From Rickettsiales bacterium (lineage in GTDB: Bacteria; Pseudomonadota; Alphaproteobacteria; Rickettsiales; UBA1997): a stretch of DNA of 59,567 nt. Numbering within the stretch: position 1 is the first letter of the stretch; every line of letters starts with the position of its first letter. This document shows positions 1,437 through 59,487 of the stretch, piece after piece. The stretch spans positions 1 through 59,567 of the forward strand of contig CANDYP010000001.1 in NCBI GenBank assembly GCA_947425005.1. The letters are read 5' to 3'. The notes beneath the pieces were generated by a model, which saw nothing but the letters and a program-made list of their open reading frames with translations, searched no databases and was not told the origin of the DNA. Both the position numbers and the translations under genes were made by a program.

Positions 1437-1520
1437 GAAACCCCCCTACCCCCCTTGTCAGGGGGGCTTGATCGAGCTCGGGTTAACGCCCCCCTGATAA
1501 GGGGGGTAGGGGGGTTTTTC
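1437..1520. repeat. GC-rich nested palindromic element, copy 1 (C6/G6-tract family)
   Basis: GAAACCCCCCTACCCCCCTTGTCAGGGGGGCTTGATCGAGCTCGGGTTAACGCCCCCCTGATAAGGGGGGTAGGGGGGTTTTTC. Outer and inner arms are self-complementary. It starts 22 nt after the nuoF stop and matches the other copies in the window. Confidence 0.9.
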
Positions 1521-1561: not shown

Positions 1562-2758
1562 ATGCAAAAAATCGTCGCACTAATCACCGCCTGTGGTCGC
1601 GGAAATCGCTTCAATCGTGGCGAAGGAATTCCCAAGCAATATTTATCTCTTGCCGGCGTACCACTTTTGCGCCACTCGATCCTCGCATTCTTAAATCATC
1701 CCAAAATCGACGACGTGATTTGCGTGATTCATCCCGAAGACATGGGGATGTACGAAGAAGCGGTTGCTGGTCTTGATTTGTTAAATCCAGTCTACGGCGG
1801 CGACACTCGCCAAGCCTCGATTCGCCTCGGCCTAGAAGCTTTGCGCGAATATGCGCCCGACAAAGTTTTAATTCACGACGGCGTGCGTCCTTTTGTTTCT
1901 AAGCGCATCATCAACGGCATTTTGGAAAAATTAGAAACTCATCCGGCGGTGATTCCGGCGGTTGCAGTGGAAGACACGCTCAAAAAATATTCTGACGGAA
2001 AAATTGAATGGACCTTGGAGCGCGAAAATTTGTGGCGGGCTCAAACCCCGCAGGGCTTCATTTTCGAAGATATTTTAAATTCTCACATCGCGTTTAAAGA
2101 TTTACATTTTACCGACGATTCGTCGCTCAACGAATATGCGGGAATTCCGGTGGCGATTGTTCCGGGTTCGCAAAATAATTTTAAAATCACAACAGAAGAA
2201 GACTTTGAACGCGCTAAGCGCATGGTCTCGATGCTGATTAAAACTGTGAAAGAAGAAAATCGCTGCGGCACTGGTTTTGATGTTCACGCGTTTCGCGAGC
2301 GCAAGAAAGACGAAGATGATTCGATTCGCTTGTGCGGAGTTGACGTAAAATTCGACAAAAAAATTGTTGCTCATTCAGACGGTGACGTCGGCATTCACGC
2401 TGCCATTGACGCGCTTTTGGGTGCTATTGGCGCTGGCGACATCGGCGAACATTTTCCGCCTTCGGATTCAAAATGGAAAAATATCGACTCGCGCGAAATG
2501 CTAAAAATTATTCGCCATTTATTGATAAAAAAAGGTGCGACAGTTTTGAATCTTGACCTCACGGTGATTTGTGAAAAGCCAAAAATTTCTAAGTTGAAGG
2601 GCAAGATGGAAGAAGAGTTGGCAAGGGTTTTGGGAATCTCTGCAAGCCGCGTTAATGTGAAGGCTACAACTACCGAGAAGTTGGGGTTTCTGGGGCGCGA
2701 AGAGGGAATTGCCGCGCAAGCTGTGGCGTCGGTTTGGATGGCAGTGACCGAAGAATAA
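1562..2758 (+). CDS. ispDF: bifunctional 2-C-methyl-D-erythritol 4-phosphate cytidylyltransferase / 2-C-methyl-D-erythritol 2,4-cyclodiphosphate synthase
   Basis: 398-aa fusion. The N-terminal half is IspD-like (AACGRGNRF, IHDGVRPF). The C-terminal half is IspF-like (GTGFDVHAF, AHSDGDVGIHA, GEHFPPSD). Confidence 0.9.
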   Translation: MQKIVALITACGRGNRFNRGEGIPKQYLSLAGVPLLRHSILAFLNHPKIDDVICVIHPEDMGMYEEAVAGLDLLNPVYGGDTRQASIRLGLEALREYAPDKVLIHDGVRPFVSKRIINGILEKLETHPAVIPAVAVEDTLKKYSDGKIEWTLERENLWRAQTPQGFIFEDILNSHIAFKDLHFTDDSSLNEYAGIPVAIVPGSQNNFKITTEEDFERAKRMVSMLIKTVKEENRCGTGFDVHAFRERKKDEDDSIRLCGVDVKFDKKIVAHSDGDVGIHAAIDALLGAIGAGDIGEHFPPSDSKWKNIDSREMLKIIRHLLIKKGATVLNLDLTVICEKPKISKLKGKMEEELARVLGISASRVNVKATTTEKLGFLGREEGIAAQAVASVWMAVTEE

Positions 2759-2759
2759 T

Positions 2760-3548
2760 TTATTTAGTGCGCGCCACTTCCAAAGATTTCTCCTGCAACC
2801 AATTCATCCTCTCTTCAATCGTAATTTTGAGCTGCTCCATCTCCTCCTTGTTCGCATCTTTCGCCACGTAAAATGGTTTTTCGTCCAAATAAAAACACAG
2901 AGTTGAAAAGGGCAGTGGGATTTTAAATTGGTCCCAAGTCTTGAGCTGCAAGAATTTCGAAGACGAACAAGATGCTGCCAAAATTCCTGCCTGAGCAATG
3001 CGCGCAATATTTACAATCTCACCATTAATTTTCTGATTAGGTCCGCGTGGCCCGTCGGGTGTGATGTTCAGCGAGTAGCCTTTTTTCAAGCCCTCGAAGA
3101 TTTTTTTGAAGCTGCCAATGTCGATGCCGCGTGAGGATTTGCGCCCATCGCGCGAAGATCCTAAAATCGAAATCAATCCGAACTTCTCCATTATTCTGCC
3201 CACGAAACGGCCGTCACCGTGGCGTGAAGCTAGTGTCATGTAGTTGCAATCGGGGTAAAGTTTTTTGGGCTCTTGCGTGACGAAAGGGGCGATCATCAAG
3301 CGATTGTGCCAAAAGACAATCAACAGCGGCAGCTTGTTTTTCGCGGCATCCAGCACCGAATTCTGATTAATAAAAATCCGACGACTGCTGTAAAAAACCA
3401 AATTCATGTAGCCCAAAAAAATCAAACAAAGCAGCTCTTGAAACAGCCAGCTGTACGTAATTTTCCGCAGCAATACTTTGAATTTGGTTTTGACGTCGTA
3501 CCATTCAAGGTCGGTCTGAACGCCAAATATTTTCCATTTTTTAGCCAT
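2760..3548 (-). CDS. DUF374-type lysophospholipid acyltransferase family protein
   Basis: 262-aa ORF with an N-terminal TM segment, FWHNRLM, ASRHGDGR and ITPDGPRGP motifs typical of DUF374 proteins. The product name is recalled from family knowledge. Confidence 0.6.
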   Translation of the reverse strand: MAKKWKIFGVQTDLEWYDVKTKFKVLLRKITYSWLFQELLCLIFLGYMNLVFYSSRRIFINQNSVLDAAKNKLPLLIVFWHNRLMIAPFVTQEPKKLYPDCNYMTLASRHGDGRFVGRIMEKFGLISILGSSRDGRKSSRGIDIGSFKKIFEGLKKGYSLNITPDGPRGPNQKINGEIVNIARIAQAGILAASCSSSKFLQLKTWDQFKIPLPFSTLCFYLDEKPFYVAKDANKEEMEQLKITIEERMNWLQEKSLEVARTK

Positions 3549-3614
3549 TTTTTAGAAAATCTAAAATAGTTGTTAGTTTTTTGAGCCCAACAGTATCAAC
3601 GATTAAAAGCGGCC

Positions 3615-3654
3615 CTTCTCCTAATCTTCTCCTAATCTTCTCCTAATCTTCTCC
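3615..3654. repeat. 11-bp tandem repeat CTTCTCCTAAT x3.6 spanning the stop codon of CDS 3632-5284
   Basis: Direct reading shows units at 3615-3625, 3626-3636 and 3637-3647, plus a partial unit at 3648-3654. The stop codon (3632-3634) lies in the second unit. Confidence 0.9.
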
Positions 3655-5284
3655 ATTTAGGAGATCGAAATGTTCCGCAGTTTTTGATGGCCTTATCTTT
3701 CTTGGACATTTCTTGTAGCAGGTTATCTATTTTTTTCTTTTTTGCCTCAATGGATAAAATATCTGACAAATATCCCATTAAGATTTCGTCAATATCTTTG
3801 CGAGACATCTCTTTAAATTTATCTAAATATTCCAGCACCCACGCTTTGTACTGTTGCTTGGAAAATGCTCTATTTTTAATGTATTTTTCTTTTTGATTTG
3901 TGGCTGAGGCAATTTCAGCAGCGATAAAATAGCGGGGCTTTCTACCTTCAATTAAATTCTGCTTCTTAAGAATTTTAACATCTTCATTGCCTACGGGAAG
4001 ATTTTTTTGAATGCGATCAAGCAGAAGGGTCGTCGGAAAATCTAAATCTTTTTCCATTAAAATTTGCGAAAATCTCTCATCAATTATTTTGCCGTAAATT
4101 GTTACGGACACTTCTCTGTTATCAGTTCTGTAGTCAGGTGCCGGAAAAAATTTTCTAATTTGTGCTAGATAAATTTTGTTGATACCGCTGCCTTCGGTAT
4201 CAACAATGCCAAGCTCGCGCATTGCATCGGCTAGAAATTTATTGCGATATTTTTTTGGTGTTTTCGTGCCCTCGATGTAATCCTCTACCTTGCCCTCAAA
4301 AAAATCTCCGGCGTTTTCAAAAATTAAGCGGTCGGGTTTTTCGTTTAGTACTATTCTGTTGTTTTCAGTGTAGTCTTGATGAGCAATGCAGTTGTTCAGA
4401 GCTTCTAGAACCGCTTCGGAGTCGTATTTATCAACCGAGTCCGGATACAAGCTGTTATTGGTAAAAACTTTAACCTTGTTGTTTCTGATATCGTTCCAAG
4501 TGTCGTTCAGCGTTAAAAAAAAGGGAGGATGAAAAGTTTTCGAGGTGATTTCATTCGGAGCCAAATTCCATCCAACCAATCTGTGTATTATCTCTGCTTG
4601 CGACGGTATCAAAAAATTGGCTGATTCGGGCTTTCCCAATAAAATTAAGGACGTGCGTGTAATTTTACCGTCAATGGTAATGCGTGCCTTATCGAGTAAA
4701 AGCTGTTGATTTGTCAAATGAGTCAAATTCCTTCTCTTCTCTCTAATCTTGTCGCAAGCCTTATTTACAGCTTCTGGAGAGAGGTCTTCAAAAGAGGCCT
4801 CTTTAATAATTTGCGCTGACCAGTCTGTATCGGAGTTGTAAATTTTTTGTAAAAGATCGGAATATTTTTCATTTCTCAAATCAACGATATGGCTGTTGAT
4901 GCGGCCCCAAGACGTCTTGTTGTAAAGAACGGGCTCCCCCTTCGCAGCTGTAAATTTAAACAAAACAATCGGAGCTTCTTTGTAAGAAAAGCGATGGATT
5001 TCAAATTTTGTTTTGGGGCTGATATGTGTTCTGAAATGCAGCTCGAGAGGTTTCTTATTCTCTTCAAAAGTGAGTTTTGTTCCCTTGATGTTGTGGCTGA
5101 GATCCTCAATTCCAAATACCAGAAAGCCAAAGTCTTTATTGCGCAAGCAAGCCCCATTTGCTAAGGCGGAGAAATATTTTCCTAATTCGTCAAAGTCATA
5201 AAAACTTTGTTTGAATTCGGTAAATTCATTTTCCCCTTCCAGCAAAAGTTCTTCCAAAAGTTTTTGCAGTTCTGTTTCGGTCAT
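3632..5284 (-). CDS. AlbA_2 (Schlafen-like) / HATPase_c_4 domain putative transcriptional regulator (RecG-like ATP-binding protein)
   Basis: The N-terminus LEGENEFTEFKQSF...LVFGIED resembles the AlbA_2 DNA-binding domain. The central ALNNCIAHQDY...ENAGDF...RNKFLADAMRELGIVDTEGSGINKI resembles HATPase_c_4. A C-terminal wHTH-like tail follows. Accessory-type gene. Confidence 0.65.
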   Translation of the reverse strand: MTETELQKLLEELLLEGENEFTEFKQSFYDFDELGKYFSALANGACLRNKDFGFLVFGIEDLSHNIKGTKLTFEENKKPLELHFRTHISPKTKFEIHRFSYKEAPIVLFKFTAAKGEPVLYNKTSWGRINSHIVDLRNEKYSDLLQKIYNSDTDWSAQIIKEASFEDLSPEAVNKACDKIREKRRNLTHLTNQQLLLDKARITIDGKITRTSLILLGKPESANFLIPSQAEIIHRLVGWNLAPNEITSKTFHPPFFLTLNDTWNDIRNNKVKVFTNNSLYPDSVDKYDSEAVLEALNNCIAHQDYTENNRIVLNEKPDRLIFENAGDFFEGKVEDYIEGTKTPKKYRNKFLADAMRELGIVDTEGSGINKIYLAQIRKFFPAPDYRTDNREVSVTIYGKIIDERFSQILMEKDLDFPTTLLLDRIQKNLPVGNEDVKILKKQNLIEGRKPRYFIAAEIASATNQKEKYIKNRAFSKQQYKAWVLEYLDKFKEMSRKDIDEILMGYLSDILSIEAKKKKIDNLLQEMSKKDKAIKNCGTFRSPKWRRLGED

Positions 5285-5305
5285 CTGGTGAAATGATGTT
5301 GGTTG

Positions 5306-5959
5306 CTAAATTTTTTGCCCAGTGCCGGCCCAATCTTTCACAAAAGTTTCGAGGCCTGAGGTGGTCAACGGGTGAGAGATTAATTGTTTGAGAACTTTGC
5401 CCGGGATGGTGGCGACGTCGGCGCCCATTCTGGCGGCGGCGGTGATGTGGATTGGGTTGCGGATGGAGGCCACTAGAACTTCGGTTTTAAATTCCGGGTA
5501 ATTGGAGTAGATGTCGCAGATTTCTTCGATCAACGCCATGCCGTCCTGACCAATATCATCAAGCCTTCCCACAAAAGGTGACACGAAAGTGGCGCCGGCT
5601 TTGGCGGCCAAAATTGCCTGAGCGGCAGAGAAGCAAAGTGTGACGTTGGTTTGAATTCCTTTGTCGGAAAAATATTTGCAGGCCTTTAATCCGTCGAGTG
5701 TCATCGGCAATTTGATGCAGACATTTTTGGCGATTTTGGCCAAGATTTCGCCTTCGCGAACCATTTCAGAGTAAGTGGTGGCAGCAACTTCGGCACTGAC
5801 TGGGCCGGAAACGATTTTACAAATTTCGGCAATCACTTCTTTAAAATCGCGACCGGATTTGGCGATTAAACTTGGATTGGTAGTAACGCCATCAAGAAGG
5901 CCAATGTCGGCGATTTCTTTGATTTCAGCAATTTCAGCAGAGTCGATGAAAAATTTCAT
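5306..5959 (-). CDS. tal: transaldolase, short fructose-6-phosphate aldolase-like type
   Basis: 217 aa. [15 protein letters not shown]...[15 protein letters not shown] and the KIP/LP Schiff-base region are typical of type 3B transaldolases. Confidence 0.85.
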
Positions 5960-6044
5960 AAAGTTTTTTGTTTGAATTTTGGAAGGAGGAGCTGTTGGGT
6001 GAGGGCCCTGAAATTAACCCTCCCGAATCTCTTAATCAACCTTC

Positions 6045-8090
6045 ATGTCGAAAATTTTTGCGCAAGTTTTGTTGCCATTGGCACTTGACGAGCCCTTCAC
6101 CTACAAGGCTGTGAGCGGGGTCGAAGAAGGTGATGTGGTACGCGTGGAATTTGGCAAAAAAGAAATTTGGGGAGTGGTGACTGCGGTTGGTTTTGATGCG
6201 CCGCAAAATTTTTCTGAAGCCAAAATCAAAAATATTTTAGAGACAAATTCGCGACTAAAATTCACTAAATCGCAGTTAAAGTTTATTGAGACTATTGCGA
6301 CGTACAACCTTGCTAGTCGTGGTTTGGTACTACGTGCTTTTATCGGAATTTTAAACTCGGATAAGGTCAAAAAAATTCCTGAAGCTTTGCAGCAAAAAGT
6401 TGCTCCGGAAAATTTTTCGCTAAAAAAATTATTGCCCAAGCAGCAAGAAATTTTTGATCAACTTGCGGTGATGATGACGGCGGAGCCCGTATCAGGTCAG
6501 TCCGTATTTCTTCTCGACGGAGTTACTGGCTCTGGCAAAACTGAAATTTATTTTGCGCTGATTGCCAAAATTTTAGCAAAGAGCGCGTCGGGGACTTCGC
6601 CCTCCACACTTGTCACCCCGCCGTATGACGTGGTCCATCGCGATGCGACACAAGTCCTTATCCTCCTCCCAGAAATTGCTCTCACCAGCCAATTGCTTCT
6701 GCGCTTCGAAGAGCAATTCGGTTTTAAACCCGCTCTCTGGCATTCCAAAATTTCTAAGAAAGAGAAGCGTGAAATTTTTTACGGTGTTGCGGAAGGGTCG
6801 GTTCGAGTCTTGATCGGCGCACGTTCGGCCCTGTTGCTTCCTTTCAAAAATCTGCGCTTAATCATCATTGATGAAGAGCACGATTCCTCTTTCAAACAAG
6901 AAGACGTCTTCAATTTTCACGCCCGTGACATGGCGATTGTTAAAGCGAAACTAGAAAATTTTCCGGTCGTTTTGTCGTCAGCAACGCCAGCGCTTGAGAC
7001 TTACGCCAATGCCGTTTCCGGCAAGTACCACCATTTTATTTTGGAGCAAAGATTTGGTCAAAAAAACGCCGTAGAATTGGTCGATTTGCGTCGCGAAAAA
7101 ATGCAATCGAACGAATTTATTTCGCAAAAATTACGCGAAGAAATGGCGCGAAATTTGGAGCGAGGTAAACAGAGTTTGCTTTTTCTCAATCGCCGCGGAT
7201 ACGCGCCAGTTACGCTTTGCAAGACATGTGGAAAAAAATATCAATGCGCCGATTGCGACTTTCATTTGGTGTTGCACAAGTCCAAACACAAGTTGGTTTG
7301 CCACCATTGCGGACATCAGGAAAAACTTTGCCACGAGTGCAAATTTTGTGGTGAGAAGGATGCGATTATTTCGGTCGGAGTCGGCGTGGAGAAGGTTGCG
7401 GAAGAGGTCGCCAGAATTTTTCCGGAAGTCAGAATCGCGCTGGTTACTAGCGACAATGTTAGCAGTTTTGACGACGTCGACAAACTGGTGTCGCAAATTT
7501 TAAATCGTGAAATTGACGTCATTATCGGCACGCAGATGATTGCCAAAGGCCACGATTTTCCTGATCTGACCTTGGTTGGAATCATTGATGCGGACTCGTC
7601 ACTTTATTCCTCCGAGCTGCGCGCTTTGGAGAAAACTTACCAAATGTTAACCCAGGTAATCGGCCGGGCAGGAAGGCGTGAGGAGCAAGGCCGAGTCTTG
7701 ATTCAGACCTACAATCCTGACAATTTTATTTTCGAGCAAATCATCAAAAGTGACAAAAAATCTTTTTACGAATTTGAAAGAAAAAATCGCGAGATGCTTG
7801 ACCTGCCGCCATTTTCAAGGCTTGCCAGATTTGAAATCAGCGCCTTCGCCGAAGCTGAAGCCAAAAATTTTGCCAAAAAATTAATCCAACATTTCCCTCT
7901 CAGCGACAAAATCGAAATCTACGGCCCCGCTCCAGCGGCACTTCAACGCCTAAAAAACCGCCACCATTTTTTTGTGAATCTGAAAGTGGAAAAAAAAGTA
8001 AACCTGCAAAAATTAATTTCCGACGTGATAAAAAGTTTGAAAATTCCAAACTCGGTGCGAGTTAGAATTGATGTCGATCCGGTGAGCTGA
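6045..8090 (+). CDS. priA: primosomal replication protein N' (PriA helicase) with a ~21-aa insertion after Walker A
   Basis: 681 aa. Has Walker A GVTGSGKTEIYF, a DEEHD box, the Cys-rich zinc region CKTCGKKYQCADCD...CHHCGH...CKFCG, and GTQMIAKGHDFP. Confidence 0.9.
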   Translation: MSKIFAQVLLPLALDEPFTYKAVSGVEEGDVVRVEFGKKEIWGVVTAVGFDAPQNFSEAKIKNILETNSRLKFTKSQLKFIETIATYNLASRGLVLRAFIGILNSDKVKKIPEALQQKVAPENFSLKKLLPKQQEIFDQLAVMMTAEPVSGQSVFLLDGVTGSGKTEIYFALIAKILAKSASGTSPSTLVTPPYDVVHRDATQVLILLPEIALTSQLLLRFEEQFGFKPALWHSKISKKEKREIFYGVAEGSVRVLIGARSALLLPFKNLRLIIIDEEHDSSFKQEDVFNFHARDMAIVKAKLENFPVVLSSATPALETYANAVSGKYHHFILEQRFGQKNAVELVDLRREKMQSNEFISQKLREEMARNLERGKQSLLFLNRRGYAPVTLCKTCGKKYQCADCDFHLVLHKSKHKLVCHHCGHQEKLCHECKFCGEKDAIISVGVGVEKVAEEVARIFPEVRIALVTSDNVSSFDDVDKLVSQILNREIDVIIGTQMIAKGHDFPDLTLVGIIDADSSLYSSELRALEKTYQMLTQVIGRAGRREEQGRVLIQTYNPDNFIFEQIIKSDKKSFYEFERKNREMLDLPPFSRLARFEISAFAEAEAKNFAKKLIQHFPLSDKIEIYGPAPAALQRLKNRHHFFVNLKVEKKVNLQKLISDVIKSLKIPNSVRVRIDVDPVS

Positions 8091-8116
8091 TGGGTGGAGG
8101 GGGTCTCGTCACAAAC
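8086..8116. repeat. degenerate solo right end of the palindromic element family
   Basis: CTGATGGGTGGAGGGGGTCTCGTCACAAAC resembles the family right end CTGATAAGGGGGGTAGGGGGGTTTCTCGTCACAG..ACAAAC. It overlaps the priA stop and borders the hipBA module. Confidence 0.45.
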
Positions 8117-8118
8117 TC

Positions 8119-9384
8119 TTACTTAAAATACCCCAAAATCCGCGCCGATCTTTTCCCGATTATTCCGCGAATTTCATCAAAAATTTCAGATTCAATTCCT
8201 TTTTTATTCAGCTGTTGTTGCAGACCTTCCGCCGCTCTCGGAAGTTTGACCGCAAATTCTTTTAGCTCTTTTTCCAGATGTGCTCTCGCAGTATTGGTGT
8301 CGGCAACGATGCTGTGCCAATGAGCCAAGGCTGTGCGATTCGGATCTTTTGACTTGCCAATTCTCATTGCCATTTCGTGATCTATTTCAGGGTAACAGCA
8401 GGTTGAAATTAAATCATAAAGTGGCGCGAGCCGTGTCTGACCGCTCTTGTAAAGGAAAGAAAAATTTTTGCCGTGAGCGTCGGAGTTGCCGATTAGATAA
8501 TTAAAAATTACGGCGCGCAGAAATTTATATTGGTCTGACGCAGCTTGCGAACTGTGCCGCGTGATTAATTCTTTGCAGGTTGCAATTCCTGGACCGCCTT
8601 CAATGCCTTGATATTTTTGCTCTGGCAGCAATCCCAATGCTTGGCAAAAATCTTCCTGATGTAGGCGAATGGTGTGGCCTTGTGCTTTAGCGCGATCGTA
8701 GCGTCGGATTAGCAAATAAGGCAGATCATCAAGTGTTTTAAAAAATACTTCCGCGACATCAAAGCCAATCTCTTTGGCCAGTTTCATGCAGAAAAATTCA
8801 TTGTGAACAGAGTCGGGATGTCGCGGCATTACTGGTTTTGAGATGTGAGTGCTAGGCTTGCCATTAACCAATGCTGGCAGCGAATTTTTCTTTTCATCGA
8901 AAAAGACGGCGATTTTGCGCTGCGCTCCGGCCAGGGAAAGTCGAGCCTTTTTCTTGCCAATCGCCAGAGGGCTGACTTCGGTTTTTTTAAAAATTTCGTA
9001 AAGACGATTTTTGCTGACAGCCTCTATTGAGCCTTGTGTGTAGCTCGGGAGCTTTTCTCTTTCCGGCAAAATTTCGACAGCTCCGGCGCAATCGCGGCCG
9101 ATTTCGTAAAGCAAAGCGAAGGGATTTCTTTCGGATACTTTAAGTGCGCCCGCTACCAGGCTGAGCTGCTCTCCTTCAGGCAAAAGGCCGGAGAAAAATG
9201 GTTTAACAATATTGGCTTTGAAAGGTTCGGTCTGCAGCGGCAAAGAGATTGAAAGCGGTGCTGCGTTTTTGGATTTTAAATAAGCGGTGTCGTAAATAAA
9301 TGAGATGGCGCCGCCTTTTAAGCTTTGTTCTAAATTTCCGACGAAGATTTTATTGAGATAAACGTCGAGTTTTCTGGCGGTCAT
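8119..9384 (-). CDS. hipA: type II toxin-antitoxin system HipA family toxin (Ser/Thr kinase)
   Basis: 421 aa. Has a HipA N-terminal coupling region (KIFVGNLE...ISFIYD), LSLAGAQRKIAV, and a catalytic region NSDAHGKNFSFLY. It overlaps the upstream HTH gene by 4 nt. Confidence 0.88.
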   Translation of the reverse strand: MTARKLDVYLNKIFVGNLEQSLKGGAISFIYDTAYLKSKNAAPLSISLPLQTEPFKANIVKPFFSGLLPEGEQLSLVAGALKVSERNPFALLYEIGRDCAGAVEILPEREKLPSYTQGSIEAVSKNRLYEIFKKTEVSPLAIGKKKARLSLAGAQRKIAVFFDEKKNSLPALVNGKPSTHISKPVMPRHPDSVHNEFFCMKLAKEIGFDVAEVFFKTLDDLPYLLIRRYDRAKAQGHTIRLHQEDFCQALGLLPEQKYQGIEGGPGIATCKELITRHSSQAASDQYKFLRAVIFNYLIGNSDAHGKNFSFLYKSGQTRLAPLYDLISTCCYPEIDHEMAMRIGKSKDPNRTALAHWHSIVADTNTARAHLEKELKEFAVKLPRAAEGLQQQLNKKGIESEIFDEIRGIIGKRSARILGYFK

Positions 9385-9593
9385 TTGGATTTGCTGATTA
9401 GCGTTACACCCAGCATTTGAGCGATTTTCAAGGCTTTGTCGATGGCGCAGGTGGCCTTGCCTTTTTCTAGATCAACGATGAATCTTTCGCCAACTCCGCA
9501 CAAGGCGGCGAGTTGCTTTTGAGTAAGGTTTTGTGATTTGCGGGTTTGTTGGATTAACTTTCCTAAGTCTTCACAGGAGCTGATTGGAGTCAT
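9381..9593 (-). CDS. hipB: HipB-like XRE-family HTH antitoxin
   Basis: The HTH core is LTQKQLAALCGVGERFIVDLEKGK. The ORF is open to 9704, but I chose ATG 9593 (MTPISS...) because the 5' extension is covered by operator-like palindromes and has no recognisable domain. Confidence 0.7.
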   Translation of the reverse strand: MTPISSCEDLGKLIQQTRKSQNLTQKQLAALCGVGERFIVDLEKGKATCAIDKALKIAQMLGVTLISKSK

Positions 9594-9610
9594 ATTTCTC
9601 GAATTAAATT

Positions 9611-9730
9611 TTTTACCGTACGGGAAGTTTTCGCTAAAAAATGCTGATTTTTTGCTAAAACTTACTGATCGGTAAGAAAATGGTCTCCACGCCGCATTTG
9701 TCAACCAAAACTTACCGTCCGGTAAGTTTT
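9611..9730 (-). promoter_or_regulatory. three operator-like palindromes CTTACCG-N2-CGGTAAG upstream of hipBA
   Basis: Sites: 9613-9627 TTACCGTACGGGAAG; 9661-9676 CTTACTGATCGGTAAG; 9707-9730 AAAACTTACCGTCCGGTAAGTTTT (11-bp perfect arms). Spacing is about 48-50 bp. Confidence 0.55.
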
Positions 9731-9733
9731 GTT

Positions 9734-11221
9734 TTAGCTTTCTGTCGTGTAATTCGGAGACTCGGAAGTGATGGTGATGGAGTGAGGGTGAGACTCGCGG
9801 AGGCCGGAATTGGTGATGCGGACGAAGTTGCAGTTTTTTCGCATCTCTTCGATTGTGGCATTTCCGGTGTAGCCCATTGAAGATTTTAGGCCGCCGATTA
9901 ATTGGTGCAGAATGTCGGAGACTGGGCCTTTGTAAGCTACGCGGCCTTCAACGCCTTCAGGCACCAATTTTAATTTGTCGGAAACATCTTGTTGGAAATA
10001 GCGGTCGGCTGAGCCGCGAGCCATGGCGCCGAGTGATCCCATGCCGCGGTAAACTTTGTACGAACGGCCTTTGAAGAGCACGATTTCGCCGGGAGTTTCT
10101 TCGGCACCGGCAAGTAAGCCGCCAAGCATGACGCAAGATGCGCCGGCGGCGATGGCTTTGGCGAGGTCGCCGGAAAATCTAATTCCGCCGTCAGAAATGA
10201 CCGGAATTTTTGCTTTGTCGCAATATTCCACAACGTCGAGAATGGCCGACAATTGAGGCACGCCGACACCGGCAACGACGCGAGTTGTGCAAATTGAGCC
10301 CGGGCCAATGCCGACTTTCACGGCGTCTGCACCAGCGTCAATCAAGGCTTTGGCGGCCTCTTTGGTTGCAATATTTCCGGCAATAAATTCCTGTTTTGGG
10401 TAAGCTCTTTTTAATTCGCGAACAGTTTCGATGACGCCGGCAGAGTGGCCGTGAGCGGTATCGATTACCACAATATCTACGCCCGCTTCGATTAGGCTTT
10501 CGGCGCGCTTGATGCCGTCGCGGCCTACGCCCGTTGCAGCGGCGACCAATAGACGACCGTCGAAATCTTTAGAAGCATGGGGAAATTGTTTGGTTTTTTC
10601 TAAATCTTTGCCGGTCATCAAGCCAATGCAGTTGCCGCTTGAGTCCGTGATGATGATGCGTTCGATTCTATTTTTGTGGAGCAAATGTTTAGCGTCAGTT
10701 TTGCTGATATTTGCTTTGGCAGTGACCAAATTTTCTTTGGTCATCAGCTCGGAGATCAACTGCTTCCTGTCTGTAGCGAAGCGCACGTCGCGATTGGTTA
10801 AAATTCCTACCAGTTTTTTAGAGCCGGGTTTTACGACCGGAATTCCGGAAATTCCGTAATCTTTCATCAAAAGCAAAGCGTCGTTTAAAGTCTCGTTGGG
10901 CGAGATGGTGACTGGGTTCACCACCATTCCTGATTCAAACTTTTTTACTCTTCTGACTTCGTCAGATTGGTCTTTGATTGAAAGATTTTTGTGAATACAG
11001 CCAATGCCACCGGACTGCGCCATTGCAATCGCCAAGCGACTTTCAGTGACAGTATCCATTGCGGAAGAAATGATCGGAATATCCAGCGAAATTTTTTTAG
11101 TAATTTTAGTTTTGGTGCTGGCATCCATCGGCAAAACATTGGAGAAAGCTGGCTTCAAAAGCACGTCATCAAAGGTTAGAGAAGGGGTAGCGGTCTCGAT
11201 GATTTTACGATTTTGTGTCAT
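9734..11221 (-). CDS. guaB: IMP dehydrogenase
   Basis: 495 aa. Has tandem CBS domains and the catalytic loop [11 protein letters not shown], then GVGVPQLSA, all typical of GuaB. Confidence 0.93.
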
Positions 11222-13350: not shown

Positions 13351-13380
13351 TTGGTGGGATGGGTCCCGTTTTCAATTTGC

Positions 13381-13465
13381 GAGAAACCCCCCACCCCCCT
13401 TATCAGGGGGGCCTTAAACCGAACTCGATCAAGCCCTCCTGATAAGGGGGGTAGGGGGGTTTCTC
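13381..13465. repeat. GC-rich nested palindromic element, copy 2 (core in inverted orientation)
   Basis: GAGAAACCCCCCACCCCCCTTATCAGGGGGGCCTTAAACCGAACTCGATCAAGCCCTCCTGATAAGGGGGGTAGGGGGGTTTCTC. The core is the reverse complement of the core in copies at 1437 and 59488. Confidence 0.9.
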
Positions 13466-13481
13466 GTCCCAATTTCTGATA

Positions 13482-14688
<1,207 letters not shown>

Positions 14689-18226: not shown

Positions 18227-18997
18227 ATGTTGATCCTACTCTCGCCTGCAAAATCACTGGATTACAAATCACCAATTTTTCACCAAAATTTTACGATTCC
18301 GCATTTCAAAAAAGAGACCAAAAAACTGGCTTTTGAGCTCAAAAAATTTCCCGCTTCTGATCTAGAAAAATTAATGGGAATTAGCGCAAAATTAGCGGAA
18401 TTAAATTTTGCAAGATTCCAAAATTTTTCACCAAAATTTGATTTAAAAAATTCTAAACAGGCTTTGTTGGTCTTTGACGGTGACGTTTACAAACCGATTG
18501 AAAAAGCGAAATTTAGCGCGGCAGATTTTGAATTTGCGCAGAAAAATTTACGTATTTTGTCTGGATTTTACGGGCTGTTGCGGCCTCTGGACCTAATGCA
18601 GCCCTACCGCTTGGAAATGGGAACTGATTTTAAAAAAACTGATTTCGGTGCCAAAAATCTTTACCAATTTTGGGGAGACAAAATTTCGCAGCGTCTCAAT
18701 GAAGAGTGCGCGGAATCTGGCGCAAAGCACATTATTAATCTTGCTTCGGAAGAATATTTTGCCGCGGTGAATCCGCAAAAAATCTCGGCGAAAATTACCA
18801 ACATCATTTTCAAAGAAAATAAAAACGGCGTTTACAAAATTGTTGGAATCAACGCCAAGAAGGCGCGCGGGCTGATGACGAATTTTATTGTGCAGAATAA
18901 AATTTCAGATCCGCAGGATTTAAAAAACTTTTCTCTCGAGAAATATTGCTTCGCGAAAGAGTTGTCGGATGCGCAGAATTTTACTTTTACTAAATGA
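18227..18997 (+). CDS. yaaA: peroxide stress protein YaaA (UPF0246)
   Basis: MLILLSPAKSLDY N-terminus plus the FDGDVY, LRILSGFYGLLRPLD and YRLEMG motifs. Confidence 0.88.
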   Translation: MLILLSPAKSLDYKSPIFHQNFTIPHFKKETKKLAFELKKFPASDLEKLMGISAKLAELNFARFQNFSPKFDLKNSKQALLVFDGDVYKPIEKAKFSAADFEFAQKNLRILSGFYGLLRPLDLMQPYRLEMGTDFKKTDFGAKNLYQFWGDKISQRLNEECAESGAKHIINLASEEYFAAVNPQKISAKITNIIFKENKNGVYKIVGINAKKARGLMTNFIVQNKISDPQDLKNFSLEKYCFAKELSDAQNFTFTK

Positions 18998-19115
18998 GTT
19001 TGTGCCTGGGATGAGAAACCCCCCTACTCCCCTTATCAGGGGGGCTTAACCCGAGCTCGGTTTAAGTCCCCCTGACAAGGGGGGTAGGGGGGGGTTTCTC
19101 GTCACAGGCACAAAC
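18998..19115. repeat. GC-rich nested palindromic element, copy 3 (longest, with extended GTTTGTGCC / GGCACAAAC arms)
   Basis: It begins directly after the yaaA stop: GTTTGTGCCTGGGATGAGAAACCCCCCTACTCCCCTTATCAGGGGGGCTTAACCCGAGCTCGGTTTAAGTCCCCCTGACAAGGGGGGTAGGGGGGGGTTTCTCGTCACAGGCACAAAC. Confidence 0.9.
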
Positions 19116-19130
19116 CAAAACCAAATTAAA

Positions 19131-19865
19131 ATGAAAAACTGGACCCACAAAAACTTCACCATTCACCAATTCTCTCAGCTCGAAAGCACCAACAAAACTG
19201 CCTTCGAAATGGCGGAAAATAAAAAACTTTTCGACCGCGAAATAATTCTTGCCGATTCCCAAACCGCTGGCAAAGGCCGGGAGTCAAGGGTCTGGAGTTC
19301 GCCGCAGGGCAATCTTTATTTCTCGCTAATCTTACAGCCCAAAATTCCGGCAGAAAAAATTTCGCAAATTTCCTTTGTCGCGATTACGGCTTTAAGGATG
19401 ATGGTTGAAGGTCTGGCGCCAAATCACAAAATCCAAAATAAATGGCCTAACGATCTTTTAATTGACGAAAAAAAAGTTGCCGGCCTCTTGCTCGCAAGCA
19501 AAATCTCGCAAAAAAATTGTGAATTTGTAATCGTCGGAATTGGCTTGAATCTTGCCTCCAACCCCGGTCAAACAATTTTCCCCGCCAGTAATTTAAAAGA
19601 ATTTGAAATCAGTTTAACTGCCGAAGAGGCGCTAAAAAATTTCCTCAACCAGTTTGAAAATCTTTACGAAAACTGGCTGACTTACGGATTTGTTGGAGTG
19701 CGCAAACTCTGGCTAGAAAAGGCTTACCGCCTGAAGAAAGAAATTTCTGTTAAAAACGGCGAAGAAAAAATCGGTGGAATTTTTGAAGATTTGGATGAGG
19801 CGGGAAATCTGATTTTGCAGACAAAAAATGGTGTAAAAAAAATCTTAGCAGCAGACATTTTTTGA
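19131..19865 (+). CDS. birA: biotin--[acetyl-CoA-carboxylase] ligase (group I, no N-terminal HTH)
   Basis: 244 aa. Has the GKGRESRVWSSPQG biotin-binding motif and KWPNDLL. Confidence 0.88.
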   Translation: MKNWTHKNFTIHQFSQLESTNKTAFEMAENKKLFDREIILADSQTAGKGRESRVWSSPQGNLYFSLILQPKIPAEKISQISFVAITALRMMVEGLAPNHKIQNKWPNDLLIDEKKVAGLLLASKISQKNCEFVIVGIGLNLASNPGQTIFPASNLKEFEISLTAEEALKNFLNQFENLYENWLTYGFVGVRKLWLEKAYRLKKEISVKNGEEKIGGIFEDLDEAGNLILQTKNGVKKILAADIF

Positions 19866-25011: not shown

Positions 25012-25254
25012 ATGACTGTAGAAGAAAAAATTAAAAAATTTTCACGAAAAGCAACTTTGCTTTCGGATGAAGAAATTTTGCGGAGAAAAAAATATCTCAG
25101 AAATTTTAGAGCGATTAGTGCTCTAGAGGGCTTTGCTACCTCGGCGCTTGATCAAGAAATTTTTGATTTATTAGTCTGTAACAAAATCTCTGCCAACGAT
25201 TACCTATCACTTTGCCAAGAAGTCACGCATGCAAAAACTAACCACAAAAACTAA
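25012..25254 (+). CDS. VbhA-like antitoxin of a class I Fic toxin
   Basis: 80-aa ORF directly upstream of and overlapping the Fic gene. It contains ISALEGF, which resembles the (S/T)xxxE(G/N) inhibitory motif with the Ser offset by one residue. Confidence 0.6.
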   Translation: MTVEEKIKKFSRKATLLSDEEILRRKKYLRNFRAISALEGFATSALDQEIFDLLVCNKISANDYLSLCQEVTHAKTNHKN

Positions 25255-25849
25255 CTCATATTTTAGCGATCAGGATCAAGATTACTCGGAAGGGTGTGGG
25301 GTGCTGAAGAATTTGCCACAAATTCAAAATCAAAATGAGTTAGAGGAGTTCGAAGACAAAGTCACAACTCTGCGACTGTTTGAGATGATTGAATACAGCG
25401 CTGATAAAAAAATTGATTTTGCTCTGTGGAAGCAAATTCACAAAATTTTATTTCGTGACGTTTATGAGTGGGCGGGAGAGGTAAGGAGCGTCCAGATGTC
25501 AAAAGGAAAAACAACATTTGCTCATCCTCAATTTATTGAGAGAGAAGGTAAGAAAATTTTTGAGAAATTGGCCGCAGAAAATTTTTTGCAGAATCTAAGT
25601 CACAATTCTTTTTGTGATCGCCTGGCCTATTATCACACCGAACTGAATGCCCTGCATCCTTTTCGCGAAGGTAACGGCAGAACTCTAAAACTTCTTTTGA
25701 ATGAATTGGCGCAAAGAAATGATTTTTACATTGCATGGGAAAGTGCAGTGGTTGGTGTGGAAAATTATCTTGCGGCAACCATCAAAGCACACGAAGGAAA
25801 TCAGGATTTATTGTTAGAATTTTTTGAAAAAATTGTAGTCAAAAAATGA
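25229..25849 (+). CDS. Fic family protein (VbhT-like adenylyltransferase toxin)
   Basis: Canonical Fic motif HPFREGNGRTLK. VLKNL near the N-terminus is as in VbhT/FicT. The exact start is uncertain; it overlaps the upstream ORF by 26 nt. Confidence 0.85.
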   Translation: MQKLTTKTNSYFSDQDQDYSEGCGVLKNLPQIQNQNELEEFEDKVTTLRLFEMIEYSADKKIDFALWKQIHKILFRDVYEWAGEVRSVQMSKGKTTFAHPQFIEREGKKIFEKLAAENFLQNLSHNSFCDRLAYYHTELNALHPFREGNGRTLKLLLNELAQRNDFYIAWESAVVGVENYLAATIKAHEGNQDLLLEFFEKIVVKK

Positions 25850-35256: not shown

Positions 35257-35259
35257 GTT

Positions 35260-35329
35260 CTTGATCGAGCTCGGTTTAAGCCCCCCTGACAAGGGGGATG
35301 AGCGCATGCAAGGGGGTTTCTCGTCACAG
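35260..35329. repeat. truncated, degenerate right half of the palindromic element
   Basis: CTTGATCGAGCTCGGTTTAAGCCCCCCTGACAAGGGGGATGAGCGCATGCAAGGGGGTTTCTCGTCACAG. It starts 4 nt after the lysC stop. The left arm is missing. Confidence 0.8.
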
Positions 35330-35347
35330 ACTCAGACTAAAATACTC

Positions 35348-36169
35348 TTAAAACCCCACTACCAAATCCCCGTCATCCAATTTATTTTCGAAAGAAAATT
35401 TCCCAGAATTCTTCACCTCTTCCCCACTCACACCACATCCCAAAGAATCAGCTAAAACCTGCTCCCCAATATATTTTTCAAAAGTTTTGGCCACTTCCAA
35501 AATCCGTGAATTGGTCGAAAAAATTTTCAAATTAATGTGGTCGGAAATATTTAAATCGGCGTCTTTACGATTTTGCTGAACAGCGCGAATGATGTCGCGC
35601 GCGATGCCCTCGTCTTCCAAATCTTTCGTCACTTCAATATCGAGCTGCACCAGGTAATCATTGGTGGGCAGAGCGGCAATGGCGAATTTTTTTTCGTCAT
35701 TATTTTTGGTGGCGAGTTTAATTTCAAAATCGTCGTCAGTTAATTTTACGCCGGCAATTTCAATTTCTTTTTCAGAAATTTTTTGCCACTCACCTTTCTT
35801 GGTCGCCTCAGTAATTTCTTTAATTTTCGCGCCGAATTTGGCGCCGATTTTTTTGAAATTAATCTGCAATTTTAACTCAGCCAATTCCGCAATTTCTTCT
35901 TTGATTTCGACTGATTTGACGTTGACTTCTTCGGCAATAATTTCTTTGAAAGGCAAGATGCGCGCGGCATTTTTGCCGATTACGATTAGTTGGTTCAGGG
36001 GTAAGCGGACACGAAGATTTTTATTGTCGCGGATGCTGAGGGCGGTGGAGCACAAGCTGCGCACCAAATCCATGTCGGCGACTAATTCTTTGTCATCAAA
36101 GAGGAAAGAGAGGTTGGGGAAGTCTTGTAAATGAACGGAGATATTTCGGGAAATTTTGCGGTCAATCAC
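35348..36169 (-). pseudogene. ileS: isoleucine--tRNA ligase (type 2), C-terminal ~270-aa fragment only
   Basis: SVHLQDFP..., RLPLNQL, EEVNVKSVE, NFKKIGAKFGAK, LDIEVTKDLEDEGIARDIIRAVQQNRKDADLNISD match the C-terminal anticodon-binding/junction region of type-2 IleRS. About 800 N-terminal residues are absent. An in-frame stop lies at 36182-36184, and repeats flank the fragment. Confidence 0.7.
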
Positions 36170-36276: not shown

Positions 36277-36406
36277 TAAACCTCGATCCAGCCCTCCTGA
36301 TAAGGGGGGTAGGGGGGTTTGTGGTCAAGAATTCGTATTTAATATTCTGAGTTTGTGACGAGAAACCCCCTTACCCCCCTTATCAGGAGGGCTGGATCGA
36401 GGTTTA
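36277..36406. repeat. 130-bp composite palindrome: two half-copies of the element family arranged inside-out around a 42-bp spacer
   Basis: The left arm 36277-36320 (TAAACCTCGATCCAGCCCTCCTGATAAGGGGGGTAGGGGGGTTT) is the reverse complement of the right arm 36363-36406, with a one-nucleotide difference. It abuts the purM stop. Confidence 0.88.
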
Positions 36407-37399
36407 TTAAACCAGCTCGCCAATTACAAAAACTTCTTCACCAGCTTTTTGCAAAACATCTTTTATTTCTTCAACGTCGCCCTTCTCAACCACTAGAACC
36501 ATGCCGATTCCACAGTTGAAAGTGCGGCGCATTTCTTCGTCGGAGAGGTTTCCGAGATCTTGCAAATAAGCAAAAATTTCTGGAAGAGCCCAAGAAGTGT
36601 AGTCGATTTTTGGGATCACATTTTTGGATAAAACTCGGGGAAGATTTTCTGTTAAGCCGCCGCCGGTGATGTGGGACAAGGCTTTAACCTTGCCGGTTTT
36701 AATTGCGGCCAGACAAGATTTTACGTAAATTTTTGTCGGAGTTAAAAGTAAATTGCCCAAGGTTTGGTGCGGGTGGTAATTGTCTTCAAATTCCAAACCT
36801 TGTTGTTGGATGATGAGACGCGCTAGGGAGTAGCCGTTGGAATGTAAACCACTTGAGGCCAATCCAATTAAAACGTCACCAGCGTTGGTGGGTTTTGGTA
36901 AAATTTGATCGCGCTCAACCGCGCCCACGGCGAACCCGGCTAAATCGTAATCTCCGTCGGTGTACATTCCGGGCATTTCAGCAGTTTCGCCGCCGATTAA
37001 CGCGCAGCCAGCAAGCCTACAGCCATCAGCGATTCCTTTGATTACGGTGCTGGCAACGTCGACGTCAAGTTTGGAGCAGGCGAAATAATCTAAAAAGAAA
37101 AGTGGCTCGGCCCCTTGAACTACAAGGTCGTTCACCGACATGGCGACTAAATCAATTCCGATTGTGTCGTGATCGTTGGTTTCGATTGCGATTTTGAGCT
37201 TAGTGCCGACGCCGTCGGTGGAGGAGACCAAAACCGGATCACGGAAATTACATTTTTTTAAATCGAAGAGGGCGCCGAAGCCGCCTAAGTTAGAATCAGC
37301 CCCGAGGCGCGCTGTTGCTTTAGCGAAGGGTTTGATGCGATCAATCAAAGCGTTACCGGCGTCAATATCAACGCCAGCTTGTTTGTAGCTTAAAGACAT
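36407..37399 (-). CDS. purM: phosphoribosylformylglycinamidine cyclo-ligase
   Basis: [29 protein letters not shown] and HSNGYSL motifs. The ORF is open to 37489; ATG 37399 ([10 protein letters not shown]) is preferred. Confidence 0.92.
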
Positions 37400-49358: not shown

Positions 49359-50033
49359 ATGTTTTTTGACGCCAAAATGCTAGTCGCGTTGGTTTTCATA
49401 ATAATCAATTTTCTGATTATTTTTGTAATCCGCACCCGCACCACCACTGTTACCATCTTGATTATCGCCCATCTGATGTTGGTGCTTTTTTTGAGTCTGT
49501 CGATCTCCAATTACAACAGTTTTAAAGAAGTTGTTTTGGCTTTGGTGGCTTACTCAATGGTGGTGTTATTTCTAATTTCTAATCACAATCAGATTTTTTC
49601 TGATGACTCGCAAAGGCCTAAAATCAAGGGATCGAGCCAATCATTTTTTGTAGTTGCGGCGGTGCTTTCTGCGGTGGCGGTAATTTTTTGTGCGCTTTTT
49701 TTAATCACAAAAAATGTGCCAAAAATTTCTCAAATGGTTTCAAACAAAAAACTCGAGAAGCAGAATGAAATCATGATGAACCCAATGATTTTGCCGTCTC
49801 ACCCTGTTCACATCGCGATCAAGAAATTTTATTTAGGCAAAAAAATTGAAGATGATGGCAGCGACTGGCTGGATAAAGCGCAGATTCAGGCCGAGATAAA
49901 TGACAGAAAACAAGCGCGCCTCAAAGATAAATTGTCCGACAATTTTTTACTCAAACGTTCTTCTGACGTAATTCTAATCATAGTGGCTATCAGCACGAGT
50001 TTGCTGCTTCTGGCCAGCAAGAACCAGTCCTGA
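49359..50033 (+). CDS. hypothetical multi-pass membrane protein
   Basis: 224 aa with about 4 N-terminal TM helices, a charged soluble segment and a C-terminal TM helix. No recognisable family. The last 4 codons lie inside the 128-bp palindrome. Confidence 0.5.
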   Translation: MFFDAKMLVALVFIIINFLIIFVIRTRTTTVTILIIAHLMLVLFLSLSISNYNSFKEVVLALVAYSMVVLFLISNHNQIFSDDSQRPKIKGSSQSFFVVAAVLSAVAVIFCALFLITKNVPKISQMVSNKKLEKQNEIMMNPMILPSHPVHIAIKKFYLGKKIEDDGSDWLDKAQIQAEINDRKQARLKDKLSDNFLLKRSSDVILIIVAISTSLLLLASKNQS

Positions 50034-50148
50034 GTCTTTTTTAATTCCAGATTTCGCCCTATTTCGGCTTATTTTTTGGTAAAATTTTACCAAAAAAGCG
50101 CTCGAAATATGTCAAAATCTGGAATTAAAAAAGACTCAGGACTGGTTC
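50021..50148. repeat. 128-bp palindromic element with 34-bp perfect terminal inverted repeats (a second, unrelated family)
   Basis: GAACCAGTCCTGAGTCTTTTTTAATTCCAGATTT at 50021-50054 is the exact reverse complement of 50115-50148. The 60-bp centre contains the inner palindrome TTTTTTGGTAAAATTTTACCAAAAAA. Confidence 0.9.
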
Positions 50149-50169
50149 TAAAAAAATCTTAAATAATTA

Positions 50170-54573: not shown

Positions 54574-54654
54574 CAGCCTTCGCTCTAACGACCTCCGCCT
54601 GACATTCCAGCTAGGAGCTGGCTTGCCAGGCGAAGCTCATAAGAGCGAAGGCTG
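54574..54654 (-). other. long three-tier hairpin forming the 3' trailer of tRNA-Lys
   Basis: The 13-bp outer stem CAGCCTTCGCTCT / AGAGCGAAGGCTG includes two nt of the CCA end. Inner stems are CGCCTG/CAGGCG and CCAGCT/AGCTGG. Confidence 0.6.
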
Positions 54655-59484: not shown

Positions 59485-59487
59485 CTC

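Follow-up and report, generated by a model that had tools for sequence, protein, structure and literature searches.

The window analysed here, the whole 59,567-nt stretch of contig sequence, carries a real, high-copy, lineage-specific palindromic repeat of the REP/REPIN/MITE kind, with no match among catalogued families. We read it, at a probability of roughly 70%, as a non-autonomous REP doublet (REPIN/BIME-like, MITE-like) that accumulates to high copy number at the 3′ ends of genes and is presumably mobilised in trans.

Copies and Organisation of the Repeat

Pattern scans of both strands found seven copies or remnants of this GC-rich palindrome (~85–130 bp, every copy intergenic), at all of the positions reported in a first-pass annotation and nowhere else in the window. 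Four probes were compared with dinucleotide-preserving shuffles of the window. The 18-mer CCCCCCTGATAAGGGGGG gave 20 strand-hits with up to 3 mismatches (0.01 expected), while GGGGGGTAGGGGGG with up to 2 mismatches, the outer arm GTTTGTGACGAGAAACCCCC with up to 3 and the asymmetric core CTTGATCGAGCTCGGTTTAAG with up to 3 gave 10, 5 and 4 matches (0.08, 0.02 and 0.00 expected, respectively). The resulting density is 7 per 59.5 kb, i.e., ~1 copy per 8.5 kb. The window, previously called AT-rich, is only moderately so (43.8% GC).

Alignment of the copies resolves a full element into an inverted doublet of a 26-nt module, C6-TGAYAA-G6-TA-G6, arranged round a ~20-nt core and bracketed by outer arms of 15–20 nt (GAGTTTGTGACGAGAAAC). 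Read from the left, an outer arm, (TC)TGAGTTTGTGACGAGAAAC, is followed by the module in the form C6-TA-C6-TTRTCA-G6 and by the core; the right half continues from the core into the module as C6-TGAYAA-G6-TA-G6 and ends in the outer arm GTTTCTCGTCACAAACTCAG(A). Each module thus comprises a 6–7 bp C/G hairpin with a TGAYAA loop, then TA and a second G6 run. The core occurs in two forms, one symmetric (CTTAACCCGAGCTCGGTTTAAG) and one carrying GATCGAG on a single side. Intact outer arms are seen at 18998–19115 and in the half copies; those of the rest are degenerate. They had been thought confined to the longest copy (18998), but the alignment places degenerate arms round most copies; the earlier consensus accordingly stands as a description of the element and falls short in length, the real element being longer owing to these arms. 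By RNA folding, full copies form a single hairpin of 40–55 bp (−66 to −100 kcal/mol; z = −6.6 to −12.9).

The copies are arranged as four head-to-head doublets, one tail-to-tail dimer (36277–36406) and one singleton (35257–35335), with a decayed end in addition. The first doublet (1424–1540, including a perfect palindrome at 1437–1520) occupies the gap from nuoF, which stops at 1415, to ispDF, which starts at 1562. Its modules, at 1441–1467 (− strand) and 1488–1514 (+ strand), enclose an asymmetric core (1467–1487), its outer arms are degenerate, and its RNA fold reaches −77.4 kcal/mol (z = −9.3). The second (13366–13480) separates the mdh stop (13523, − strand) from a PBP/FtsI-like gene that starts at 13350; it has modules at 13387–13412 (−) and 13433–13459 (+) and folds at −74.3 kcal/mol on the transcribed strand; its core is on the − strand, in the same orientation relative to mdh as that of the first doublet relative to nuoF. 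The third and longest (18998–19115) occupies the yaaA/birA gap, with intact outer arms (GTTTGTGCC...GGCACAAAC), a symmetric core, modules at 19019–19045 (−) and 19066–19092 (+), and a fold of −99.8 kcal/mol (z = −12.9). The fourth (59475–59567; modules at 59494–59520 (−) and 59540–59566 (+)) is placed 3 nt past the hslU stop (59484) and is truncated by the end of the window.

The singleton (35257–35335, + strand) abuts the aspartate kinase stop (35256) and comprises the core, right module and outer arm without a left module; 13 nt (TGAGCGCATGCAA) take the place of its usual TA linker. The tail-to-tail, or "inside-out", dimer (36277–36406) abuts the purM stop (36407–36409) and joins a core and right module (36277–36334) to a left module and core (36349–36406), giving arms of 58 nt that are 90% complementary. 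Similar joints of right module, short spacer and left module occur in other contigs of the source metagenome. The decayed right end (8076–8118, + strand), at the priA/hipA junction, reads TCGATCC..CTGAT..GGGTGGAGGGGGTCTCGTCACAAACTC. In the REP-doublet reading, single modules and tail-to-tail dimers are derivatives.

Gene Context

The genes flanking the copies encode NuoF, IspDF, PriA, HipA, a PBP/FtsI-like protein, Mdh, YaaA, BirA, aspartate kinase, PurM and HslU; the names already given to those beside the copies (NuoF, Mdh, YaaA, aspartate kinase, PurM and HslU) were correct. All seven copies are located 0–25 nt past a stop codon, between neighbours that are tandem or convergent and never divergent, and copies abut or overlap the stop codons themselves. 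The yaaA stop (TGA, 18995–18997) is part of the TGAGTTTGTG end motif, and the final priA codons together with the TGA stop (8088–8090) fall within element-derived sequence. No copy is an in-frame insertion inside an ORF; the two at priA and yaaA merely replace the last codons or the stop. The asymmetric core had been described as occurring in both orientations, which is true of the DNA strands, yet relative to the upstream gene and its stop codon four of four are oriented alike, a regularity that is only suggestive at n = 4 copies.

Copy Number in the Source Metagenome

Its IspDF fusion, together with Mdh homologues that bear the names "Rickettsiales bacterium" or "Alphaproteobacteria bacterium", assigns the organism to the uncultured alphaproteobacteria. 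A cave metagenome is the sole public run containing the window, and its contigs were mapped to positions 18800–19300. There, 195 contigs map onto the element at yaaA–birA, and the summed word depth rises to 2400–6400 over 19004–19105 vs. 11–15 in the unique flanks (~150–400×). This depth corresponds to a few hundred genome-equivalents, in agreement with the density of ~1 copy per 8.5 kb seen in the window. The family has multiplied in this alphaproteobacterial lineage, in which it is lineage-specific and high-copy, and the proposal of a dispersed, REP/MITE-like family of nested palindromes is supported. In practical terms, the repeat breaks assemblies; in a second assembly of the window organism, a contig (L092) breaks inside the hslU copy. 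Besides the assembly that contains the window, GCA_973627075.1 is a MAG of this organism.

Turnover among Related Genomes

Relatives were sampled as syntenic contigs reached through Mdh homologues (89–95% identity), including L107 (GCA_013573275.1; Mdh 94%) and L120 (GCA_040384045.1; Mdh 95%). The yaaA–birA site is element-free in five of them: the two genes overlap at ATGA in L107, L112, L115 and L117, and an 18-nt gap separates them in L113. The priA–hipA junction of L115 has no element either. These empty sites, along with the very high copy number in the metagenome, bear out the view that copies were independently inserted. Between mdh and the PBP gene, an unrelated ordinary hairpin, different in each genome, is found in L110, L113, L115 and L117, and a 3-nt gap in L112.

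L107 does carry palindromic elements at nuoF–ispDF and mdh–PBP, and at each locus their outer arms and junctions match the window copy. The interiors deviate from the window, and do so identically at four of the four copies in its 21 kb (a density of 4 per 21 kb): an extra hairpin of 15–16 nt (GACCCCnnnGGGGTC) stands instead of the TA linker, the loop reads TGTCAA or TGTTAA, and the core shows no relation to that of the window. Given that locus-specific arms are shared by the two genomes while the interiors are genome-specific at every copy, the comparison indicates concerted evolution, with copies alike within a genome and different between genomes.

Other junctions show a similar variety. 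L120 has a sibling element with the loops of the window and a homologous core, but with an AA/TT linker and different outer arms; its position is the PBP/SpoU junction, where other relatives have either no element or one of another family. At the L25/adh_short junction, all genomes have a canonical terminator (A-tract, hairpin, T-tract) in common, and right after it L107, L110, L113, L115 and L122 each bear a different palindromic family, while the window adds none. Lineage variants also change the run lengths (C5, CCCTCC, CCACCCC) with the palindrome kept. The same permissive sites appear to have been colonised repeatedly, with homogenisation within each genome, as has long been described for REP/BIME/REPIN elements. 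In the first-pass annotation, occupancy of strictly orthologous positions in distant relatives was to be the sign of an ancient conserved terminator. Two such sites are indeed filled in L107, but by its own variant, and other relatives have unrelated hairpins or nothing there, which argues for REP-like concerted turnover and against that interpretation.

A more general form of the terminator idea is that of a signal selected by the host, i.e., a bidirectional intrinsic terminator or 3′-end stabiliser kept for the sake of the genes, its repetition being a by-product. The close spacing of seven of seven copies behind stop codons, with no divergent neighbours, is in keeping with it, as are the ordinary hairpins that relatives have at mdh–PBP and downstream of lysC and the TTTCTC or TTTTTC following the G-rich stem in the window variant. 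However, this U-rich tail after the last G-run pairs with GAGAAA inside the stem, the L120 variant is followed by an A-run and not a T-run, and a consensus terminator scan makes no call at the elements. Neither fold energy nor G-U content is consistently biased to the transcribed strand (3 of 6 informative copies). Moreover, the elements at L25/adh_short were added beside a canonical terminator kept by every genome, and yaaA–birA works in relatives as a pair of overlapping genes without any element. We therefore regard host selection as an improbable origin of the repeat, and a terminator or 3′-stabiliser role, judged on sequence features, as possible but secondary. The window encodes RNase III, for which an RNA duplex of 40–55 bp would be a plausible substrate.

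A further reading is that of a DNA switch acting through non-B structures. Three G6 and three C6 runs are present on either strand, and perfect palindromes can extrude cruciforms. Against this, a canonical intramolecular quadruplex requires four G-tracts where three are present, the competing hairpin is very stable (−66 to −100 kcal/mol as RNA), and run lengths vary among lineages while the palindrome is retained. The suggestion of a G-quadruplex or i-motif has no support from any of the computations, and we give a switch of this type, cruciform included, hardly any credence.

Comparison with Known Repeat Families

REPs are known to occur as head-to-head and tail-to-tail dimers with spacers of 20–100 bp, as singletons and as clusters, in unidirectional or convergent gene gaps, and their defining mark is an unpaired tetranucleotide, GTAG or CGTC, at the 5′ foot of the stem-loop (PMC3733652). 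The window repeat has in common with the REP/BIME/REPIN-RAYT systems (PMC3733652, PMC3116915) a short GC-rich stem-loop with a 6–7 bp stem, a 4–6 nt loop and an adjoining unpaired tag. It further resembles them in its inverted head-to-head dimers with a conserved spacer, which give one long hairpin, in the additional presence of tail-to-tail dimers and singletons, and in its hundreds of extragenic copies within unidirectional or convergent gene gaps; like REPINs, it forms genome-specific variants even at shared sites. Its organisation, placement and evolutionary behaviour match those of REP dimers, BIMEs and REPINs. Several features set it apart. The GTAG tag is absent from the 5′ foot; instead, G-TAG trails the hairpin (hairpin-TAG-G6), and the 5′ foot of the other strand is CTAC. 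The module has a second G6 run that pairs with the partner module, the repeat bears extra outer arms, and, in contrast to REPIN-RAYT systems, no RAYT has so far been found for it and its module is shared across many phyla.

Likenesses to other families are looser. The Correia elements of Neisseria and the enterobacterial ERIC/IRU sequences are MITEs with defined terminal inverted repeats and a TA duplication. They too are non-coding intergenic palindromes of ~100–150 bp, co-transcribed with neighbouring genes into long hairpins and able to supply stops or alter gene ends; the window repeat differs in its poorly conserved ends and uncertain duplication. Rickettsia palindromic elements (RPE) typically lie in frame inside genes and are not known to be C6/G6-based. 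The host group of RPE and of the CGTC-1/-4 REPs of Rickettsia/Wolbachia appears related to the window organism, whose relatives are labelled Rickettsiales or Alphaproteobacteria bacterium, and, compared at the level of general descriptions of RPE, both are palindromic repeats of compact genomes with some copies affecting coding ends; the window copies, however, are extragenic except for the last codons or stop of priA and yaaA. The mobile GC clusters, or double-hairpin elements, of fungal mitochondria are likewise GC-rich nested palindromes forming lineage-specific families in AT-richer compact genomes, a likeness by analogy only, given the different genetic system. An integron attC site was also considered and rejected: its core (R″/R′, RYYYAAC ... 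GTTRRRY) is not matched by the ends GAGAAAC...GTTTCTC, which have pyrimidines at purine positions, and the neighbours of the copies are housekeeping genes rather than gene cassettes.

Catalogue and literature searches agree with the earlier impression of an unmatched family, Rfam, the full-text paper search and the text of a REP survey all being without a match. At gathering thresholds, Rfam returned only tRNAs for the window and for 17 module-bearing loci from other phyla, and a permissive scan of one copy returned only generic miRNA-precursor hairpins far below threshold. Four 15-mers of the module had no match in a full-text search of papers, and any G6/C6 string is absent from the text of the 2013 GTAG/CGTC REP survey. 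There were no exact matches to the module in viral contigs (0) and no blastn match to the repeat in a plasmid collection.

Proposed Mobilisation

In the REP-doublet reading, a trans-acting enzyme would recognise the subterminal hairpin module and so bring about both the spread and the homogenisation of copies, with gene conversion possibly contributing. The likeliest candidate would be a hairpin-binding single-strand DNA transposase (HUH/Y1, RAYT-type) encoded elsewhere in the genome. Placement behind genes would mainly reflect tolerated sites, and any action of the transcribed long hairpin as a 3′-end structure, whether in blocking an exonuclease or as an RNase III substrate, would be a side effect and not the cause of the element's existence. 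The module is conserved across phyla, unlike the variable outer arms and cores. Conservation of the module over the ends is expected where an enzyme recognises subterminal hairpins, as in the IS200/IS605 and RAYT systems, and the pattern seen here would fit an enzyme of that sort.

The search for the enzyme itself returned no candidate. The 59.5-kb window encodes no transposase of any kind, and no Y1 HUH (RAYT) gene was found there or in Pfam listings of ~200 kb from relatives. Nor was a transposase found beside modules in ~650 kb of other loci; the RAYT query there, an E. coli YafM sequence that gave no blastp match to ORFs of the listed CCCTGAYAAGGGGGGTAGGGGGG loci (described below), was a weak probe. 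Clustering the ORFs of the 91 listed loci and inspecting genes bracketed by modules gave ordinary metabolic genes and one DUF559 endonuclease, with no transposase.

The yaaA–birA insertion is possibly surrounded by a 6–9 bp duplication (AAATGA), made uncertain by the spacer in L113; if real, a DDE transposase would account for it more readily than an HUH enzyme. This brings in a MITE of the classical type, derived by deletion from a DDE-transposase IS, whose outer arms would be the recognised terminal inverted repeats (TGAGTTTGTGAC...) and whose insertion would leave a short target-site duplication. Outer inverted arms do exist and are common to several lineage variants, and the yaaA–birA insertion is flanked by ACTAAATGA and ATTAAAATGA; since yaaA and birA overlap at ATGA in relatives, a target duplication would be needed to keep both genes intact. 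Yet AAATGA is the one candidate duplication, with none at priA–hipA or other sites, and the 18-nt spacer of L113 resembles the right flank in the window, which allows for insertion without duplication. The outer arms are degenerate, do not allow exact termini to be assigned and are different in L120; across lineages they are the least conserved part and the subterminal module the most, the reverse of what is typical of MITEs recognised by their terminal repeats. No parent IS was seen. A DDE-type MITE is therefore unlikely, but, with its outer arms and one possible target duplication, a live rival to the REP doublet.

The Module in Other Phyla

An exact scan for CCCTGAYAAGGGGGGTAGGGGGG in one genome per GTDB species returned at least 91 stretches. 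Among the matches listed, the module, loop sequence included, occurs in MAGs labelled with at least nine phyla, the labels being Nitrospinota, Chloroflexota, Zixibacteria, Troglogloeales, Poribacteria, Binatia, Firmicutes, Patescibacteria, Gracilibacteria and unclassified "bacterium" (many from sponges), with a GC content of 0.34–0.68. These listed matches are again head-to-head dimers of the module, set round other cores and flanked by other outer arms; the partner arm, which the scan did not require, bears the same module. With loop and linker left free, a relaxed pattern still recovered loops that were nearly all TGAYAA or TGTCAA, and linkers that were nearly all TA or ATTTA-like. Where ORFs could be called, modules in other phyla lie in tandem or convergent gene gaps. 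A metagenome scan for the end type seen in the window (G6-TA-G6-TTTCT) gave one clearly related element (L095) and further hairpins with different loops ahead of an identical G6-TA-G6.

This conservation across phyla is the one feature beyond the ordinary. REP-type repeats are usually seen as lineage-bound, each with its own domesticated transposase, and the module spans very distant phyla. The REPIN literature describes RAYT/REPIN systems as vertically inherited. Sharing of the module between phyla is unusual for such systems and counts against the REP-doublet reading. An enzyme spreading horizontally, a conserved host factor or convergence may each account for this distribution. We tentatively put forward, while holding it more doubtful than probable, that the module (C5-6, TGAYAA, G5-6, TA or ATTTA, G5-6, TT) is the cis-site of an unrecognised, horizontally spread, trans-acting system that builds and homogenises nested palindromes in at least nine phylum-level lineages. 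Among these lineages are an alphaproteobacterial clade, sponge-associated MAGs, Poribacteria, Chloroflexota, Zixibacteria, Methylomirabilota-like Troglogloeales and Patescibacteria, and the reader of the module could be either an enzyme or a conserved host factor that recognises the hairpin and G-tract.

One of the loci suggested a CRISPR origin, in which the module would derive from a CRISPR repeat (a Cas6-type hairpin with an 8-nt handle) and the dispersed elements would represent solitary repeats or decoys. In the MAG L008 (Poribacteria), a mini-array of four direct copies of GTTTCCCCCCTGACAAGGGGGGTAGGGGGG, set 64–65 nt apart with unique spacers, occupies the cas3–cas4 gap of an operon resembling type I-B. 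The main, large arrays of the closely related L118 and L119, however, are built on an unrelated repeat (CTTCTAATCGAACCATACTGGAATTGAAA), so the module is not the repeat of this type I-B-like system. None of the other loci among the CCCTGAYAAGGGGGGTAGGGGGG matches listed has cas genes like those of L008, and the window has no cas genes and modules that are inverted rather than direct. As a general explanation, the CRISPR link is largely refuted by the L118/L119 arrays and by the inverted modules of the window, and we consider it extremely improbable; the array in L008 may instead have arisen ectopically, seeded at a REP-like hairpin. The same cas3–cas4 gap of L118 contains a single variant of the module.

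Implications

Within a little-known clade of uncultured, Rickettsiales-like alphaproteobacteria, the repeat points to places where intergenic sequence turns over rapidly; in the window it also provides stop codons and alters gene ends (priA, yaaA). If the module is indeed the site of a trans-acting system common to distant phyla, such hairpins may also seed ectopic CRISPR-like mini-arrays, as in L008. Should a shared recognising protein exist, profiling the module against gene content could reveal a widespread, undescribed mobilisation or binding system.

Palindrome Families in Related Genomes and Elsewhere in the Window

Each of the window organism's relatives contains nested palindromes of 100–150 bp, belonging to families that differ from genome to genome and often occupy identical intergenic junctions. 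These palindromes were located at 8461–8602 in L110, at 8338–8463, 9858–9956, and 16160–16307 in L113, at 8382–8521 in L115, at about 8360–8500 and 12650–12790 in L122, and at 9862–9971 in L112. The L110 family, which reads GAGTTTGCGAATAACCACCCC-AA-CCCCTCC-TTCAAAA-GGAGGGG, is identical in design to the window family and similar to it in the outer arm (the inverted flanks bracketing the two modules of alphaproteobacterial elements).

A second palindromic family is present within the window itself, in the form of an AT-rich palindrome of 130 bp (50020–50149) with 65-nt arms that are 88% complementary and no spacer. This sequence is unrelated to the GC-rich repeat and overlaps an ORF (49359–50033) at its 3′ end, and it is situated upstream of a pyrD-like gene. 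A further palindrome (54574–54654; 39-nt arms, 82% complementary) directly adjoins a tRNA-Lys gene (54653–54728).

Gene Ends and Gene Content Beside the Elements

Element c2, the window copy between mdh and a PBP/FtsI-like gene (13366–13480), is directly preceded by a tandem duplication of the mdh 3′ terminus (last 36–39 nt, stop codon included), the two copies having ~5 differences (13481–13560, minus strand); in relatives the mdh tail is single-copy. Between element c4, behind the aspartate kinase gene, and element c5, at the purM end, lies a stand-alone ORF of 273 a.a (35348–36169, minus strand), with similarity to a MupA-like isoleucyl-tRNA synthetase that is confined to the C-terminal quarter of the latter (about positions 760–1004 of 1024 residues; Anticodon_1 and DUF5915 domains). 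This ORF may be a gene fragment derived from rearrangement, or else an independent domain protein.

The window also encodes a hipBA-type toxin-antitoxin pair between priA and guaB (8119–9704), which is found in L115/L116 but missing from L107 and L117, where priA is next to guaB. Behind guaB in one L107-like assembly (L109) lies a type II cas9-cas1-cas2 locus (6384–10894); at this position the L107/L108 contigs, otherwise identical, carry priA. Surrounded by housekeeping genes in the window are those encoding a Schlafen/AlbA_2 and HATPase_c_4 protein (3632–5284) and a Fic/DOC protein (25229–25849).

The Module in Other Phyla

In sponge-associated MAGs (L018, L021, L052, L055, L060, L061, L066, L077, L081, L084, and L088), we noted a variant element in which two inverted modules (the 26-nt C6-TGAYAA-G6-TA-G6 hairpin unit) surround a conserved, non-palindromic core of ~113 nt (…TGAACGAGCGTTTGCATAAGCCATTGACGAGAAACACATCGTCTTGCAAAACCTCCCTC…). 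This core has a 12-mer, TTGACGAGAAAC, in common with the outer arm seen in alphaproteobacterial elements. Within a module cluster of a Zixibacteria MAG (L057) lies a DUF559 (Vsr-like endonuclease) gene (5801–6331), the final 18 codons and stop codon of which come from module sequence (…KPPYPPYQGGKNPASKSP-stop); a DNA methylase-like gene adjoins it.

The module also occurs at a CRISPR-Cas locus in a Poribacteria MAG (L008, contig JAJEAL010000088.1), where four copies in direct orientation (1629–1850), 64–65 nt apart and separated by unique 35-nt spacers, are placed between the cas3 and cas4 genes of a type I-B-like operon. In L118, a related locus, the corresponding cas3-cas4 gap contains a single module variant, and the main CRISPR array of this locus is built on a repeat other than the module. 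The four-unit array in L008 may have arisen ectopically, as a “neo” CRISPR mini-array for which a REP-like hairpin would have been the seeding site.
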